A stretch of 64,000 nt of DNA from Escherichia coli (GTDB lineage: Bacteria > Pseudomonadota > Gammaproteobacteria > Enterobacterales > Enterobacteriaceae). Below, piece by piece: positions 2,080 through 9,288 of the stretch. The first letter of the stretch is position 1, and each line of letters opens with the position of its first letter. Location of the stretch: NCBI RefSeq assembly GCF_030013595.1, contig NZ_CP122768.1; one strand, given 5' to 3'. Position numbers and translations under genes: made by a program. The notes under the pieces were generated by a model. The model did not search any database, was not told where the DNA came from, and saw nothing but the letters and a program-made list of their open reading frames with translations.

Positions 2080-3207
2080 TCAGGCGACGAGCTGTTCCAT
2101 GATACGTTGATACATACGGGCAAGTAGCTGCAGGTCGGCAGCGTTCACACATTCATTAATTTTATGAATAGTGGCATTGACCGGCCCGAGTTCCACCACC
2201 TGCGCCCCCATGCGGGCAATAAAGCGCCCGTCGGACGTTCCGCCTGTGGTCAGTAGCTGCGGTTTAATTTCATTATAGTGCTCAACCGCGTTAACGACCG
2301 CATCCACCAGTTTACCTCGCGCGGTCAAAAATGGCTGCCCGGAAAGCCACCAATCCACCGTATAGCGCAGTTGATGTTTTTCAAGCAGGGCAAGTACCTG
2401 CGCTTTGATCATCTCATCAGTCAGTTCGGTACTGAAGCGGAAGTTAAACTGCACAAACAGTTCACCCGGAATAACGTTGTTACTGCCCGTTCCCGCCTGA
2501 ATATTGGCAATCTGCATACTGGTCGCCGGGAAGAATTCATTGCCCTGATCCCACTCAATAGCCACTAATTCATTAAGGAAAGGTGCTGCGCGATGTACCG
2601 GATTGTCAGCCAGATGTGGGTAGGCAACATGCCCCTGCACGCCATGAATGGTGAGGTTGCAGGTTAACGATCCGCGACGACCATTTTTCACCACATCACC
2701 TACCACTTCGATACTCGACGGTTCGCCAACCAGGCAGTAATCGAGACGCTCATTACGTGCCATCAACGCTTCGACGACTTTTACCGTACCGTTATGGGCA
2801 CTGGCTTCTTCATCAGAAGTGATCAGAAATGCCAGTCGCCCCGTATGGTTGGGATGTTGTGCGACAAAGCGTTCTGCCGCTACCACCATCGCCGCCAGCG
2901 AGCCTTTCATATCTGCCGCACCGCGCCCGAATAACATGCCATCACGAATGGTGGGTTCAAACGGCGGATTGATCCAACGATCGGCGTCGCCAGGCGGCAC
3001 CACGTCGGTATGCCCGGCAAAGGCCAACGTTTCACCTTGCCCACGCCATGCCCAAAAATTCTGCGTATCGGCAAAATCCATGCGTTCAACGGTAAAACCG
3101 ATCGCCTGCAAACGTTCAATCAACAAAGCCTGGCATCCTGCGTCATCAGGACTCAGGGAAGGGCGGCGAATAAGCTGTTGTGTCAGCTCAATAACCGGGC
3201 ACGACAT
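2080..3207 (-). CDS. dapE: Succinyl-diaminopimelate desuccinylase (M20 peptidase family)
   Basis: 375 aa; [26 protein letters not shown]... and [11 protein letters not shown] metal-binding motif; conserved neighbourhood. Confidence 0.93.
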
Positions 3208-3210
3208 AGA

Positions 3211-3585
<375 letters not shown>

Positions 3586-3947
3586 TTATGAGAATAAATA
3601 CTCATTTAAGAGTGAAAACATTTTGCCTGCAAATGATTATCAGGAAATATAACATTATCGAAGTATTCAAATTAACAACTATTAAATAATATTAAACATT
3701 TTTAACGTAAACATTAAGAATATTCATCTTGTTATCTGTCTGTATTTTAAACAGAATTAAATCAGTATTAGATGCCGTATGAATATCTCGAAATGTTGCT
3801 GTGTATCACATACAAATCATCACCGCAGGACCATAGTATTTACATAAGGTTTGTCCCCCGGAGGTAGTCATCGCAGCAATCGAGTAAATTAGCTTCACCA
3901 CGGTATATTGTTTCCGTAGAATACCCATAATTATAAGAGAGGTTGTT

Positions 3948-4007
3948 ATGATTGAACGTGAACTGGGGAACTGGAAAGACTTTATCGAAGTTATGCTTCG
4001 TAAGTAA
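3948..4007 (+). CDS. ypfM: Small protein YpfM, 19 aa (MIERELGNWKDFIEVMLRK)
   Basis: ATG at 3948 preceded by an AAGAGAGG Shine-Dalgarno; identical to the small protein I recall between acrD and yffB in K-12. Too short for the ORF track. Confidence 0.6.
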   Translation: MIERELGNWKDFIEVMLRK

Positions 4008-4065
4008 TTCCTGAGACAAAGTACAAACAGCAAGAACCCGCTGAGCAGGTTCTTAATCGGAAAGT

Positions 4066-4100
4066 TGAAAAAGGCGACACATTGGCATGTCGCCTTTTTT
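4066..4100. terminator. Bidirectional rho-independent terminator between ypfM and the acrD 3' end
   Basis: aaaaaGGCGACAcattggcaTGTCGCCtttttt: GC stem flanked by an A-run and a T-run. Confidence 0.65.
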
Positions 4101-4105
4101 ATTGC

Positions 4106-7100
4106 TTATTCCGGGCGCGGCTTCAGCGGGAAGCGGCGGCGCACCAGCACAAAGAACAGCGGCACGAAGTAAATAGCCAGAATAGTGGCCGAAATCATCC
4201 CGCCCATTACGCCAGTACCCACCGCATGCTGACCACCGGAACCGGCACCCGTGCTGGTTGCCATTGGCAATACGCCGAAGATAAATGCCAGCGAGGTCAT
4301 CAGAATCGGGCGTAAACGCTGACGGCAGGCGTGGAGCGTCGCTTCAAACAGGTCGTGGCCTTTTTGGTTCATCTCGTTAGCAAACTCGACGATCAGGATG
4401 GCGTTTTTCGCCGATAAACCAATGACCGTTAACAGGCCCACCTGGAAGTAAACGTCGTTTTCCAGCCCGCGCATCCAGGTTGCCAGCAACGCGCCGATAA
4501 CCCCCAGCGGCACGACCAGCATTACCGAGAACGGCACCGACCAGCTTTCATACAGCGCCGCCAGACACAGGAATACCACCAGCAAGGAAATGGCGTACAG
4601 CGCCGGAGCCTGCGCGCCGGAAAGCCGCTCCTGATACGACATCGCCGTCCACTCCAGACCAAAGCCGTTTGGCAACTGCTTCACTAACGATTCCATAATA
4701 TCCATCGCCGTACCGGTACTGACCCCCGGTGCGGCTTCCCCAACAATCTCAACCGCAGAATAACCGTTATAGCGTTCCAGACGTGGCGAGCCTGTCTCCC
4801 AGCGTGAGGTCGCGAAAGCAGAGAAGGGCACCATGCCGCCATCTTTATTTCGGACATACCAGAGATTGATGTCATCTGGCAGCATGCGATACGGCGCAGC
4901 TGCCTGCACATAGACTTTCTTCACGCGACCGCGATCCATAAAGTCATTCACATAGCTCGAACCCCAGGCGGTTTGCAGTGTGTCGTTAATATCGTCGATA
5001 GCAACGCCCAGCGCCTGAGCTTTACGCTGGTCGATATCAATCTGCAACTGCGGACTGTCGTCGAGGCCGTTATGGCGCACACGGGTTAGCTCCGGGTTTT
5101 CCGCTGCCAGCGCCAGCAACTGGTTTCGTGCTGCCATCAGCGCATCGTGACCCGCTCCAGCGTGGTCCTGCAACTCCATATCAAAACCCGCAGAACTGCC
5201 AAGACCGCTAATTGCTGGCGGGCTGCTGGCGATAACGCGAGCTTCTTTAATCTTGTTAAACGCCTTCGTTGCACGTTCGATAATGGCAAACGAGGTGCCG
5301 GTCTTACTGTCGCGTTCGCTCCAGTCTTTCAGGCGGATAAACATTCGCGCCACGTTTTGCCCGTTACCCCCAGGGCCAGAACCAACGGTGGCAAACACCG
5401 ACATGATGTTGTCTTTTTCATGGGTGAAGTAGTATTTCTCGATTTGCTCAACGACTTTCAGGGTCTGTTGTTGGGTTGAACCGCTGGGCAACTGTACCGA
5501 GGTAGTAAACATGCCCCGGTCTTCCAGTGGCAAGAACGACGTCGGCAAACGCAGGAACAGGAACACCATGCCGCCAAGCAGCAGGACATAAATCACAATC
5601 CAGCGCAGGCTACGGTGGAGAATTTTCGCCACCCCTTTTTCGTAGCGTTCGGCGTTGCGGTTAAACATCTGGTTAAACCAGGCAAAAAAGCCTTTTTGCC
5701 CGTGATGCTCACCCTTTTTCAGAGGCTTAAGTAGCGTGGCACACAGAGCCGGAGTGAGGATCATCGCTACCAATACTGACAGCACCATCGCCGCAACAAT
5801 GGTAATAGAGAACTGGCGATAGATGGCACCGGTGGTGCCGCCGAAGAAGGCCATTGGTACAAATACCGCCGAAAGCACCATCGCAATCCCGACCAGTGCC
5901 CCCTGGATCTGCCCCATCGATTTACGTGTGGCTTCGCGAGGAGTGAGTCCTTCCTCACTCATAATACGTTCGACGTTTTCCACCACCACGATGGCATCAT
6001 CCACCAGCAGACCGATCGCCAGCACCATCGCGAACATGGTTAAGGTGTTGACGCTGTAACCGAAGGCGTAAAGCACGGAGAAGGTTCCCATCAACACCAC
6101 CGGCACGGCGATAGTGGGTATCAGCGTGGCGCGGAAGTTTTGCAGGAACAGATACATAACGAGGAAAACCAGGGCGATAGCTTCCAGCAGCGTTTTCACC
6201 ACGTCTTCAATGAAGGCTTTAACAAACGAGGTGGTTTCATACGCCACCTTGTATTCCAGTCCATGCGGGAAATACTGCGCCAGCTCGTCAAGACGATTGA
6301 GCACCAGCTCCGCTGTCGTCATTTCGTTCGCGCCGGAGGCCAGTTTCACCCCCAGCCCGGAGGCTGGCTTACCATTGAAGCGGCTAAGATAATCGTATTT
6401 CTCCGCCCCCATTTCGACGGTGGCGACATCGCCCAGCCTTACCTCTGAGCCGTCCTGATTCACCCGCAAGGTGATATCGCGGAACTGTTCTGGTGTTTGC
6501 AGCAGTGACTGGGCGTTAATGGTGGCGTTGAGCGCCTGCTTATCGACGGAAGGCGTACCACCAAGTTGCCCAACCGCAATCTGCGCGTTCTGTGACTCAA
6601 TGGCATCAGTGACATCTTTAGCCGTCATCTGGAAACTGTTGAGTTTCGCCGGGTCCAGCCAGATACGCATGGAATATTGCGAACCATAGGCATCGATATC
6701 CCCGACGCCATTCACGCGGCTTAACGGATCCTGAATATTACTGGCAACGTAATCGGCAATATCCTGTTTATCCATCGAACCATCGGTAGAGACGAAGGCA
6801 ATGGTCAGAATGTTGGTATCGCCGGTTTTACGCACCGTCACGCCCTGATTTTGCACCGCCTGCGGTAACTTTCGCATGGCTGATTGCAGCTGGTTTTGTA
6901 CTTGCTGCACGGCTTCGTCCGGATCGGTGCCTGCTTTAAAACTTAAAGTGACAGATGCCTGGCCGGTGCCACTGCTCTGAGACGACATATACATCAGATT
7001 ATCGAGACCGGTCATATTTTGCTCGATAACCTGGGTCACGGTGTTTTCCAGCGTCTGGGCCGATGCGCCGGGATAGTTAGCGGTCACTCGCACATTCGGT

Positions 7101-7219
7101 GGCGCGAGATCGGGGTATTGTTCAACGGGCAATGAAAAAATCGCCAGGGTCCCTGTCAGACACAACAGGATTGCCAGCACCCAGGCAAAAATGGGGCGAT
7201 CAATAAAGAAATTCGCCAT
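4106..7219 (-). CDS. acrD: RND-family multidrug/aminoglycoside efflux pump, inner-membrane component
   Basis: 1037 aa, 12-TM RND architecture; [41 protein letters not shown]...; position between yffB and narQ. Confidence 0.9.
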
Positions 7220-7382: not shown

Positions 7383-9083
7383 TTACATCAGCTGGCTTTC
7401 CTCACCCTCCGCAGAGCGAAAGCTAATACTCACTAACGTGCCGCCGCCGGAAGGTTGTGAAAAAGTCAGCGTCCCACCCAGCCGTTCCGCGCGTTCGCGC
7501 ATGATATTCAGACCATAATGGCCTTCGGGTTCTTTCGGTTCACCGATGCCAATCCCGTTGTCGCGAATATAGACCGTGTGATTGCCATCCGGCGCAGTGA
7601 CGCAGCTAACGGCGATTTCGCTGGCGTTGGCGTGCTTCATCGCATTCAGCACCGCTTCGCGAATAATTTGCAACAAATGCACCTGCATTTGCGCATCCAG
7701 CGCCAGGGTTGGCAGACGGCAGTCGAGGGTCAGTTTAGCGCTGGTTTGATTTTGTAACGTATCCAGCATTTCACGTAGCGCAGAGGGGAGATCTGCCTGC
7801 TGCAGCGTCAGGCGGAAAGTAGTTAACAGCTCGCGTAACTGCCGATAAGCATCATTCAACGCTTGGGAAAAATCGGCCATGATACTTTGTGCGGTGGCGT
7901 TATCTTCCGGTATCGAACGCTTCAGTAACGTCAACTGGATACGTAAGTAAGAAAGTACCTGAGCCAGCGAGTCGTGCAATTCGCGGGCGATGGTCGCACG
8001 TTCTTCCATCAACAATAACTGCTGAAAATGCTTCTGCGCCTGATTAAAGTACAAACCGCGTCCCAGCATCGACGAAACACTGTTAAGCAGCGGTTCTGAT
8101 GATGAAACGTGACTATTTTGCCAGTGCAGTTCGCCGTAAACCGTCTCTTGCATTGTCACCGGTAAAATCTGCATCGGCAATTCCGGGTTTGGTTTCCCTT
8201 CGCTAATCCGCCAGTTTTCACCGACATTTAACTCCAGATATTCAGCCGCTTCGTTGTCGCGAACAATCTGCAAAATATGGCGGAAACAATGCACATCAAT
8301 CTGGCTGGTGTTCAGCGCCTGCGAACACTGATACAACACCTCCAGGCGACGCTTGGCCTCGTGGAGATCGCGGGTCTTTTCTTCTACTGACGCCTCCAGC
8401 GAACGGTACAATTTATGCAGCTCGCTCGACATCTGGTTAAAGGTTTTGGCAAGCAGGCCAAGCTCATTCGGCAGGCTGGTATCCAGCGGTGGCGAGTCGA
8501 ACTGCCCGTGTTCAATACGCTGACTGGCGGTAACCAGCTGATTCAGCGGGGCAACCACCTGATGGCGTATGCGGCGCAAAGTAAAAAAGACCAGCGTGAA
8601 AATACCGATGCCGCCAGCCAGGGAAATTGCCACCACCAGCAGCATTTTGCGTTCAGCGTAGTGCTGTAAAGCCAGCACGAACAGGTCTATCTGATTAACA
8701 TAATTATTAATATTGGCCTGATACCACGGCAAGTCGCCCTTGCTGAGCCGATTATTCATCTCCAGCCAGTTGGCATTCAGATGCGCATAGCGGGTTTTTA
8801 CTGCCTCTGGCACATACCAGACGTTGAGATTGGTTAATACCGGTGAATGCAGTGCCTGCTGAAATAACTGGCGATGTGCATTGAGTTGTGGACTGCCACT
8901 TTGCAAGTCGTAGCCCAGGCGGTAACTCTGCATACGCAGCGATCCGGCAATATTGATAGCCTCAGCATCGCGCAAACTGCTCGCCAGAGTTAGCAGAGCG
9001 ATACCCGTGGAAAGAATCGACAGCAGGACAATGTAAAAAAAGGCCCGGGCCAGACTGGCCGAGACGGGTCGTTTAACAATCAC
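7383..9083 (-). CDS. narQ: Nitrate/nitrite sensor histidine kinase
   Basis: ORF 7383..9098 starts MEKTRV; the K-12-type start (MIVKRPVSASLARAFF...) corresponds to the in-frame GTG at 9081-9083. HAMP, HisKA_3 and HATPase regions present. Confidence 0.9.
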   Translation of the reverse strand: MIVKRPVSASLARAFFYIVLLSILSTGIALLTLASSLRDAEAINIAGSLRMQSYRLGYDLQSGSPQLNAHRQLFQQALHSPVLTNLNVWYVPEAVKTRYAHLNANWLEMNNRLSKGDLPWYQANINNYVNQIDLFVLALQHYAERKMLLVVAISLAGGIGIFTLVFFTLRRIRHQVVAPLNQLVTASQRIEHGQFDSPPLDTSLPNELGLLAKTFNQMSSELHKLYRSLEASVEEKTRDLHEAKRRLEVLYQCSQALNTSQIDVHCFRHILQIVRDNEAAEYLELNVGENWRISEGKPNPELPMQILPVTMQETVYGELHWQNSHVSSSEPLLNSVSSMLGRGLYFNQAQKHFQQLLLMEERATIARELHDSLAQVLSYLRIQLTLLKRSIPEDNATAQSIMADFSQALNDAYRQLRELLTTFRLTLQQADLPSALREMLDTLQNQTSAKLTLDCRLPTLALDAQMQVHLLQIIREAVLNAMKHANASEIAVSCVTAPDGNHTVYIRDNGIGIGEPKEPEGHYGLNIMRERAERLGGTLTFSQPSGGGTLVSISFRSAEGEESQLM

Positions 9084-9288
9084 ACGCGTCTTCTCCACAA
9101 AAAATCATTAATGTTCCAGTTCGCTGAAACGCAATTTAGTCAGTGATGGGATTATTTGATCTGCCACAGTTTATCGCGAAATAGTTACTTATTCTGGGCA
9201 CATGAACATTGCCGATTCCCCTGTAAGTCGGGTAATAACAACACTCATATAAAGAATAAGGTTTTTACAACCAAAAAAGAAGGTCGTT

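Follow-up and report, generated by a model that had tools for sequence, protein, structure and literature searches.

The 19-codon open reading frame in the yffB-acrD spacer of Escherichia coli is ypfM, a conserved and translated small-protein gene with a putative ArcZ pairing site

Locus and gene identity

A stretch of 64,000 nucleotides (nt) of the Escherichia coli contig NZ_CP122768.1 (RefSeq assembly GCF_030013595.1), hereafter called the window, was analysed for a 19-codon open reading frame (ORF) in the spacer between yffB and acrD. It is practically certain that this ORF, at 3948-4007 on the plus strand, is the translated gene ypfM. We also consider it very probable that ypfM is a genuine gene, transcribed and translated on its own, whose product is a cytosolic protein of 19 residues, with RNA-level constraint and putative pairing to the small RNA (sRNA) ArcZ as part of the picture. 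The gene itself is already known; its annotation and its experimental detection date back years. Hemm 2008 and Hemm 2010 are said to be the original validation and stress-expression papers.

The ORF reads ATGATTGAACGTGAACTGGGGAACTGGAAAGACTTTATCGAAGTTATGCTTCGTAAGTAA and encodes MIERELGNWKDFIEVMLRK*, with the TAA stop at 4005-4007. It is preceded by the Shine-Dalgarno sequence AAGAGAGG at 3935-3942, whose GAGG(T) core stops 5 nt short of the ATG. The genes around ypfM all lie on the minus strand: dapE (2080-3207), yffB (3211-3567), acrD (4106-7219), and narQ (7383-9098). The acrD gene, with its stop codon at 4106-4108, is convergent with ypfM, and yffB is divergent from it. The initial annotation had described a 19-codon ORF starting at ATG 3948 in this spacer, with a strong Shine-Dalgarno sequence in front and a hairpin and a terminator behind. 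The sequence and coordinates were as described, and the two structures were found at 4031-4055 and 4066-4101. The Shine-Dalgarno sequence deserves the word strong for its GAGGU core and 5-nt spacing, although it is not a perfect AGGAGG. The ORF had also been placed below the listing threshold; at 19 amino acids it is indeed missing from the ORF list, of which the minimum is 20 amino acids.

The name ypfM given there was right, and every line of evidence agrees. RefSeq/PGAP labels the identical sequence 'ypfM: protein YpfM'. The peptide matched the NCBIfam equivalog NF033843 (small_YpfM) over profile positions 1-19 of 19 with 59.2 bits (E 2.4e-16; curated cutoff 33 bits); the query carried one additional upstream codon (20 residues), and the match spans its residues 2-20. 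The ORF is also base-for-base identical to ypfM of E. coli K-12 (b4606, NC_000913.3:2590807-2590866, minus strand); the DNA, the peptide, and the position between acrD and yffB are the same, with no difference. The window comes from another E. coli strain than K-12, with a 100% match to strain HCP5S3_I2. By megablast, 5425 of 5426 complete E. coli genomes carry the spacer.

Chance alone could produce the pattern of a short ORF behind a Shine-Dalgarno sequence. Counting both strands and ypfM itself, 12 ATG ORFs of 15-30 codons in the window have a well-placed Shine-Dalgarno-like core, and 5 of the 12, again including ypfM, have a longer Shine-Dalgarno sequence. The case for ypfM therefore depends on conservation and on published experiments. 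Two antisense ORFs over ypfM (3806-4033 and 3840-4019, minus strand) were rejected, because their starts fall in the non-conserved 3' untranslated region (UTR).

Evidence for the protein product

Intact YpfM has been detected by top-down mass spectrometry with 100% coverage and retained formyl-Met, and targeted mass spectrometry also picked it up, in a low-manganese condition (PMC12529367). Ribosome footprints, the lack of which would have spoken against translation, are quantified on the identical K-12 ORF in a published ribosome profiling (Ribo-seq) table (PMC10746267, Table S8). In the same table, the footprints are slightly up at pH 5.8 (log2 +0.63, adjusted p 0.011), and at pH 4.4 versus 7.6 they fall 5.7-fold (log2 -2.51, adjusted p 7e-20), whereas the RNA change of -0.35 for pH 4.4 versus 7.6 is not significant. 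The fall in footprints without a significant RNA change gives a hint of post-transcriptional control. A literature search under the locus tag b4606 returned unrelated papers only.

Conservation and coding signature

The conservation sample comprised 80 loci from one-genome-per-species collections. YffB was used as the query, because selection for the peptide itself was to be avoided, and the ORF was then looked for. The ypfM ORF was found upstream of and divergent from yffB in 67 of the 80 Enterobacterales loci, ranging from Escherichia, Salmonella, Citrobacter, Klebsiella, and Enterobacter to Pantoea, Erwinia, Dickeya, Yersinia, and Serratia. Every orthologue found has 19 or 20 codons, an ATG start, and a Shine-Dalgarno sequence; GAGAGG or GGAG stands at the same spacing in 68 orthologues. 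The minor-allele frequencies at codon positions 1, 2, and 3 are 0.049, 0.063, and 0.188, respectively, and the pooled ratio of nonsynonymous to synonymous differences (pN/pS) is 0.16. Eight residues are invariant (M1, E5, W9, K10, F12, I13, M16, and L17), and positions 4 and 15 are hypervariable. Conservation thus goes beyond the nucleotide sequence, as the low pN/pS and the length, ATG, and Shine-Dalgarno sequence kept in 67 species indicate. As judged from these alignments, ypfM is shown to evolve as a protein-coding sequence under purifying selection across Enterobacterales.

The gene order acrD-ypfM-yffB is found in about 60 species, and the gap between ypfM and acrD is 75-220 nt in almost all loci. 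The linkage to acrD or yffB is broken in a few lineages. The ypfM gene adjoins the acrD 3' end even where it lies 1.5-2 kb from yffB, and Dickeya keeps ypfM without an adjacent acrD. No ypfM was present in 13 of the 80 loci. Two of these have no upstream sequence, and a motif search of the others gave no match; most of the latter also lack acrD, so the region is rearranged there. In Erwinia endophytica (locus L071, 2162-2356, minus strand), the slot between acrD and yffB holds no ypfM and an unrelated 64-codon ORF, MNYLKASSVHTVEETQSM..., with a strong Shine-Dalgarno sequence, GAAGGAGGGG, in front.

Two further observations concern individual strains. In E. coli Res13-Sevr-PER06-05-b-A (NZ_CP062815.1, locus L082, 2501-3359), an IS1A element lies inside ypfM after about codon 9, corresponding to window position ~3974. 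PGAP still calls a 19-codon 'ypfM' in this split gene, under another protein accession and overlapping the IS1 end. The strain SCPM-O-B-8794 (NZ_JAATUR010000003.1), labelled Escherichia coli, is only ~88.6% identical to the window across acrD-ypfM-yffB; its YffB has 88% amino acid identity, and its divergence from the window is similar to that of E. albertii. This strain probably belongs to a divergent lineage of Escherichia and not to E. coli proper. An anomalous yffB allele in the window was ruled out, as the whole locus of that strain is ~88% identical and the strain is the one that diverges; the window yffB is 97.8-100% identical to the listed E. coli genomes.

RNA-level constraint and a putative ArcZ pairing site

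Synonymous sites in ypfM vary less than those of its neighbours. The pooled pS against the window sequence is 0.375 for ypfM, compared with 0.658 for dapE, 0.627 for acrD, and 0.664 for yffB in the same species. Windows of 18 codons with a pS as low as that of ypfM make up at most 0.3% in dapE and acrD. Along yffB (3211-3567), the pS of such windows has a minimum of 0.25 and a median of 0.73. The synonymous sites of codons 5-10 are nearly frozen: E5 GAA, N8 AAC, and K10 AAA are nearly fixed, and Gly7 is the non-preferred GGG in 93% of species. None of the 65 conserved-Gly columns of the flanking genes holds one codon that strongly, and most of them have GGC. Two Escherichia lineages with ~88% overall identity to the window are 99-100% identical across 3900-3999. 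These comparisons show in part that the ypfM RNA itself is constrained beyond coding needs.

The nearly frozen codons coincide with a predicted pairing site for ArcZ. RNAduplex paired ArcZ UUCCCUGGU with ACUGGGGAA (3962-3970) over 9 bp at -15.5 kcal/mol, and the ypfM transcript is predicted to fold in a way that leaves most of the site unpaired. If the same ArcZ seed is assumed in other genera, all nine pairs are kept in 49 of 68 species. The Leu6 variants CUG, CUA, and UUA all keep the pairing, and GGA, GGC, or GGU at Gly7 would lose a C-G pair with ArcZ. Crosslinking, ligation, and sequencing of hybrids on Hfq (Hfq-CLASH) recovered 13 arcZ-ypfM hybrids in vivo, from the exponential and the transition phase, and these are marked as occurring in RIL-seq (ligation and sequencing of interacting RNAs) data as well (PMC7213987, supplementary file 3). 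The ypfM fragment in them, TATGATTGAACGTGAACTGGGGAACTGG, is window 3947-3974, and one more chimera joins this fragment to GCCAUUUCCCUGG... (PMC7213987). The RIL-seq supplements for enteropathogenic E. coli do not mention ypfM.

Codons 5-9 contain a direct repeat, GAACTGG (3960-3966)-G-GAACTGG (3968-3974). The repeat creates a pair of overlapping CUGG(G/A)A motifs, each complementary to UUUCCCUGG, which is common to ArcZ and to the fragment starting with GCCAUUUCCCUGG, presumably SdsR-like.

The following mechanism is proposed. ArcZ together with Hfq, and perhaps SdsR, would pair at codons 5-8, just inside the ribosome-binding window. The pairing would lower YpfM synthesis, and might tie YpfM to aerobic and growth-phase signals. 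We lean slightly towards the pairing at ypfM being real and selected; repression as its outcome is a more tentative proposal, to which we give somewhat less than an even chance.

Transcript, terminator, and STnc250

The features of the ypfM locus are collected in Table 1. The promoter-like site is the only one on the plus strand in 3500-4250, and it suggests, as inferred from its position, that ypfM transcription starts near 3929. Genomic SELEX (systematic evolution of ligands by exponential enrichment) in Shimada 2014 gave the same promoter hexamers for ypfM, with a note of H-NS in this spacer (PMC3946193). Across 30 genera, alignment A1 shows conservation of the CTTCAC and GTAnAAT blocks and of the A-rich leader. 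The 5' leader, CATAAT(A/T)ATAAGAGAGG, is A-rich with AAU/AAG/AGA triplets and includes the invariant columns A81-G85 of the alignment; these triplets may represent an ARN-type Hfq-binding motif.

Table 1. Features predicted or annotated around ypfM in the window.
Feature	Position	Strand	Basis or remark
AT-rich divergent control region yffB/ypfM	3568..3893	.	GC content 19-27% at ~3600-3800
Sigma-70-type promoter-like site TTCACC-17-TAGAAT	3894..3922	+	Sequence scan, SELEX hexamers, conservation
Shine-Dalgarno sequence AAGAGAGGT	3935..3943	+	GAGG core, 5 nt to ATG; within conserved A-rich leader
ypfM coding sequence	3948..4007	+	RefSeq, NF033843, orthologues and coding signature, K-12 Ribo-seq table
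Predicted ArcZ seed pairing site ACUGGGGAA	3962..3970	+	Codon 5 third base to codon 8 second base
Rfam RF01409 STnc250 match	3987..4106	+	ORF 3' end (codon 14 on), 3' UTR, terminator
3' UTR hairpin AAGAACC-CGCTGAGCA-GGTTCTT (N9 loop)	4031..4055	+	Lineage-specific
Intrinsic terminator A5-GGCGACA-N8-TGTCGCC-T6	4066..4101	.	Common to ypfM (+) and acrD (-)

In alignment A1, the sequence of the 3' UTR hairpin is confined to E. coli and E. albertii; at this place, the remaining genera have different hairpins or none. The terminator hairpin is GC-rich, and 5 nt separate its end from the acrD stop codon. With A5 on the left and T6 on the right, it appears bidirectional in form; the terminator scan called the plus strand only, because the A/T runs were absorbed into the stem. 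Covariation supports the stem, as 96% of the alignment cells are paired, 7 of the 12 pairs have compensatory changes, and none of 500 shuffles scored as high. Taken together, the promoter, leader, ORF, 3' UTR, and terminator imply a monocistronic RNA of ~175 nt with a leader of ~19 nt and a 3' UTR of ~95 nt, both ends being predicted, the 3' end near 4101-4104.

This RNA corresponds to STnc250 (RF01409) of Salmonella, which lies at the orthologous position in the acrD/yffB spacer, on the strand opposite to both genes. STnc250 is typed as an sRNA in Rfam, whereas the ypfM RNA is an mRNA, and the E. coli score misses the model threshold. The match on the window spans the whole model (1-94) and scores 37.5 bits (E 5e-6); it stays under the gathering threshold of 42 bits because E. 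coli has a longer insert, 37 nt with its own hairpin versus 13 nt in the model. The orthologous loci of Salmonella, Citrobacter, and Enterobacter scored 112.9, 81.5, and 35.7 bits, respectively, and Klebsiella gave no match. The 4-bp hairpin that Rfam draws in codons 14-18 (GAAG...CUUC) was rejected, as it is too short and is broken where Leu17 is UUG. In Salmonella, STnc250 was 4-fold enriched with Hfq by co-immunoprecipitation, gave a northern band of ~220 nt, and was identified as the ypfM small mRNA (Sittka 2008, PMC2515195).

Some observations concern the upstream region. A conserved block at ~3866-3890 lies directly upstream of the -35 element (TAGTCATCGCAGCAATCGAGTAAAT in E. coli; consensus AGCAATCAnAGCAATnGGnTAAA) in ~25 genera, and holds a CAATC...GCAATC repeat. 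It could be a regulator site or an UP-like element. A MarA chromatin immunoprecipitation peak has been reported at ypfM<>yffB in Salmonella (PMC10268841). One Hfq-CLASH chimera joins ChiX to window 3764-3792, a stretch that precedes the ypfM ATG by 156-184 nt and also lies upstream of the predicted promoter (PMC7213987).

Properties of the peptide

YpfM has four acidic and four basic residues and a net charge of 0, and its hydrophobicity averages -0.12. As a helix it has a hydrophobic moment of 0.55, a value among the top 2.4% of shuffles. One face of the helix carries the invariant hydrophobic residues, with the hypervariable positions 4 and 15 opposite, at 155 and 135 degrees from the hydrophobic direction. 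These properties fit a soluble amphipathic helix, not a transmembrane peptide. As a possible mode of action, YpfM would form a single amphipathic helix, in which the hydrophobic face (I2, L6, W9, F12/I13, and M16/L17) would bind a larger protein and residues 4 and 15 would point to the solvent. That YpfM is such a protein binder is given somewhat less than an even chance.

Points against and alternative explanations

Several observations weigh against the reading of ypfM as an independently transcribed small-protein gene with RNA-level constraint and ArcZ pairing. For the peptide, no Pfam family was matched, a PDB profile search gave only an 8-residue chance match (E 1.4) and no solved relative, and the published evidence gives no function and no partner. 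The natural IS1 insertion inside ypfM means that the E. coli strain in question, at least, can do without the gene. The ChiX chimera and the ~220-nt Salmonella band hint that ypfM has a longer transcript or that an unrelated RNA lies upstream; a long form with its start upstream of 3764 would account for both. For the constraint, 14% of the yffB 18-codon windows have a pS as low as that of ypfM. The low pS could come partly from the codon bias of a highly expressed short ORF or from initiation constraints, and the preferred codons GAA, AAA, AAC, and CGT do occur in ypfM; only GGG, being non-preferred, argues specifically against this account. For the pairing, the duplex energy is matched by 13% of shuffles and is not unusual alone, and the species count leans on the assumed seed. 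The site is also lost in Dickeya, Yersinia, and Serratia, where the peptide is kept; ArcZ control is therefore not essential to ypfM.

The best-surviving alternative is a dual-function RNA, which would encode YpfM and also act in trans, for example as a sponge of ArcZ or SdsR through the CUGGGGAA site. The RNA resembles a small regulatory RNA in its length of ~175 nt, its separate promoter, its U-tailed intrinsic terminator, and its association with Hfq. Rfam also lists the family as an Hfq-binding sRNA, the nucleotide constraint exceeds coding needs, and chimeras were recovered with ArcZ (13), the presumed SdsR-like fragment (1), and ChiX (1). However, a target and a sponge look alike in chimeras. 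As the 3' UTR from the stop codon to the terminator lacks sequence conservation, only the coding site itself could serve as a trans-acting seed, and the literature consulted reports no effect of ypfM RNA on ArcZ targets. Such a dual role is improbable on this evidence. The same low probability is given to the related mechanism, in which selection would keep both the peptide and the pairing site at codons 5-8, and an abundant Hfq-bound RNA would be silenced by, or would titrate, ArcZ/SdsR.

Another alternative is that YpfM acts on a neighbour, either the ArsC/Spx-family protein YffB or the resistance-nodulation-division (RND) pump AcrD, as AcrZ does on AcrB. The acrD-ypfM-yffB order in ~60 species and the conserved divergent promoter arrangement with yffB point in this direction. 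However, gene order shared by close relatives is weak evidence, and the linkage to each neighbour is broken in some lineages. An AlphaFold2 model of a YffB-(G4S)4-YpfM fusion, built with a paired 33-species alignment, showed no confident docking: the predicted local distance difference test score was >90 for YffB, <50 for the linker and the N-terminal half of the peptide, and 50-68 for its C-terminal half. This result is a weak negative, as the model came without predicted aligned error or contact information. For an AcrZ-like role, YpfM has too little hydrophobicity for a transmembrane helix, with the mean of -0.12 and eight charged residues. A neighbour as the partner is unlikely, a shade more so than the dual-function RNA.

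It is very unlikely that the peptide has no role, ypfM being a cis-acting leader or arrest peptide, or a transcription unit that only interferes with or terminates acrD. The ORF is very short and the peptide conserved, as in arrest peptides; ypfM is convergent with acrD, shares its terminator, and stays beside its 3' end. On the other hand, no gene follows ypfM on the same strand, and the next 3 kb of the plus strand are antisense to acrD. The terminator stem 3' of the ORF is constitutive and covarying, and the free peptide reaches levels detectable by mass spectrometry. Dickeya, in which ypfM persists without an adjacent acrD, also speaks against this reading.

A non-coding Hfq-binding sRNA (STnc250) with an incidental 19-codon ORF has even less probability. 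The family RF01409 is typed 'Gene; sRNA' and matches 3987-4106. The third codon position, however, is 3-4 times as variable as the first two, at a pN/pS of 0.16, and ORF length, ATG, and Shine-Dalgarno sequence are kept in 67 species, whereas the 3' UTR covered by the Rfam model is variable. Furthermore, intact peptide and ribosome footprints have been measured, and Sittka 2008 reclassified STnc250 as a small mRNA. The detected peptide and the coding signature already refute this alternative. Finally, a chance ORF behind a chance purine-rich stretch, for which the 12 comparable short ATG ORFs with Shine-Dalgarno-like cores in the window could be cited, is ruled out for all practical purposes by conservation, annotation, mass spectrometry, and Ribo-seq.

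Significance and comparison with known systems

The gene call itself matters for annotation only. With 19 codons, ypfM falls below most ORF thresholds, and it is therefore useful as a positive control in small-protein detection. YpfM is among the shortest proteins that are conserved across Enterobacterales and repeatedly seen by mass spectrometry. What is added here is how widely the gene is conserved, that its synonymous constraint is in excess, and that this constraint coincides with the ArcZ chimera site. A coding sequence that doubles as an ArcZ-complementary site offers a way to separate RNA-level from peptide-level phenotypes. ArcZ control, if true, would add modestly to what is known of this gene and would not amount to a new type of system. 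If the dual-function RNA is true, a conserved enterobacterial micro-protein would be linked to the aerobic and stationary-phase small-RNA network.

Other ArcZ targets, such as sppA and rcnB in the chimera data (PMC7213987), present a C(U/C)(G/A)GGG(A) motif to the ArcZ seed UUUCCCUGG, as ypfM does. The ypfM site, at +15 to +23, lies on the border of the zone in which initiation is blocked by pairing. Like the early-coding ArcZ targets of the interactome-defined regulon, the ArcZ-ypfM pair was found by CLASH and RIL-seq, and it is known from chimeras alone.

AzuC/AzuCR and SgrS/SgrT are short Hfq-associated transcripts that have their own promoter and terminator and encode very small proteins. 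For both, trans-acting base-pairing and a protein partner have been demonstrated, and AzuC is an amphipathic helix. The ypfM RNA is of the same transcript type, whereas on the RNA side it has ArcZ chimeras only. AzuC was also detected under the same low-manganese condition as YpfM (PMC12529367). The charged, net neutral, and amphipathic YpfM, without a hydrophobic span, differs from AcrZ and MgtS, even though ypfM also lies beside a pump gene. AcrZ and MgtS are very small single-pass membrane proteins with their own genes, which bind a larger protein and regulate transporters. By analogy, ypfM would appear to work most like the other small, Hfq-associated, and independently transcribed small-protein genes.

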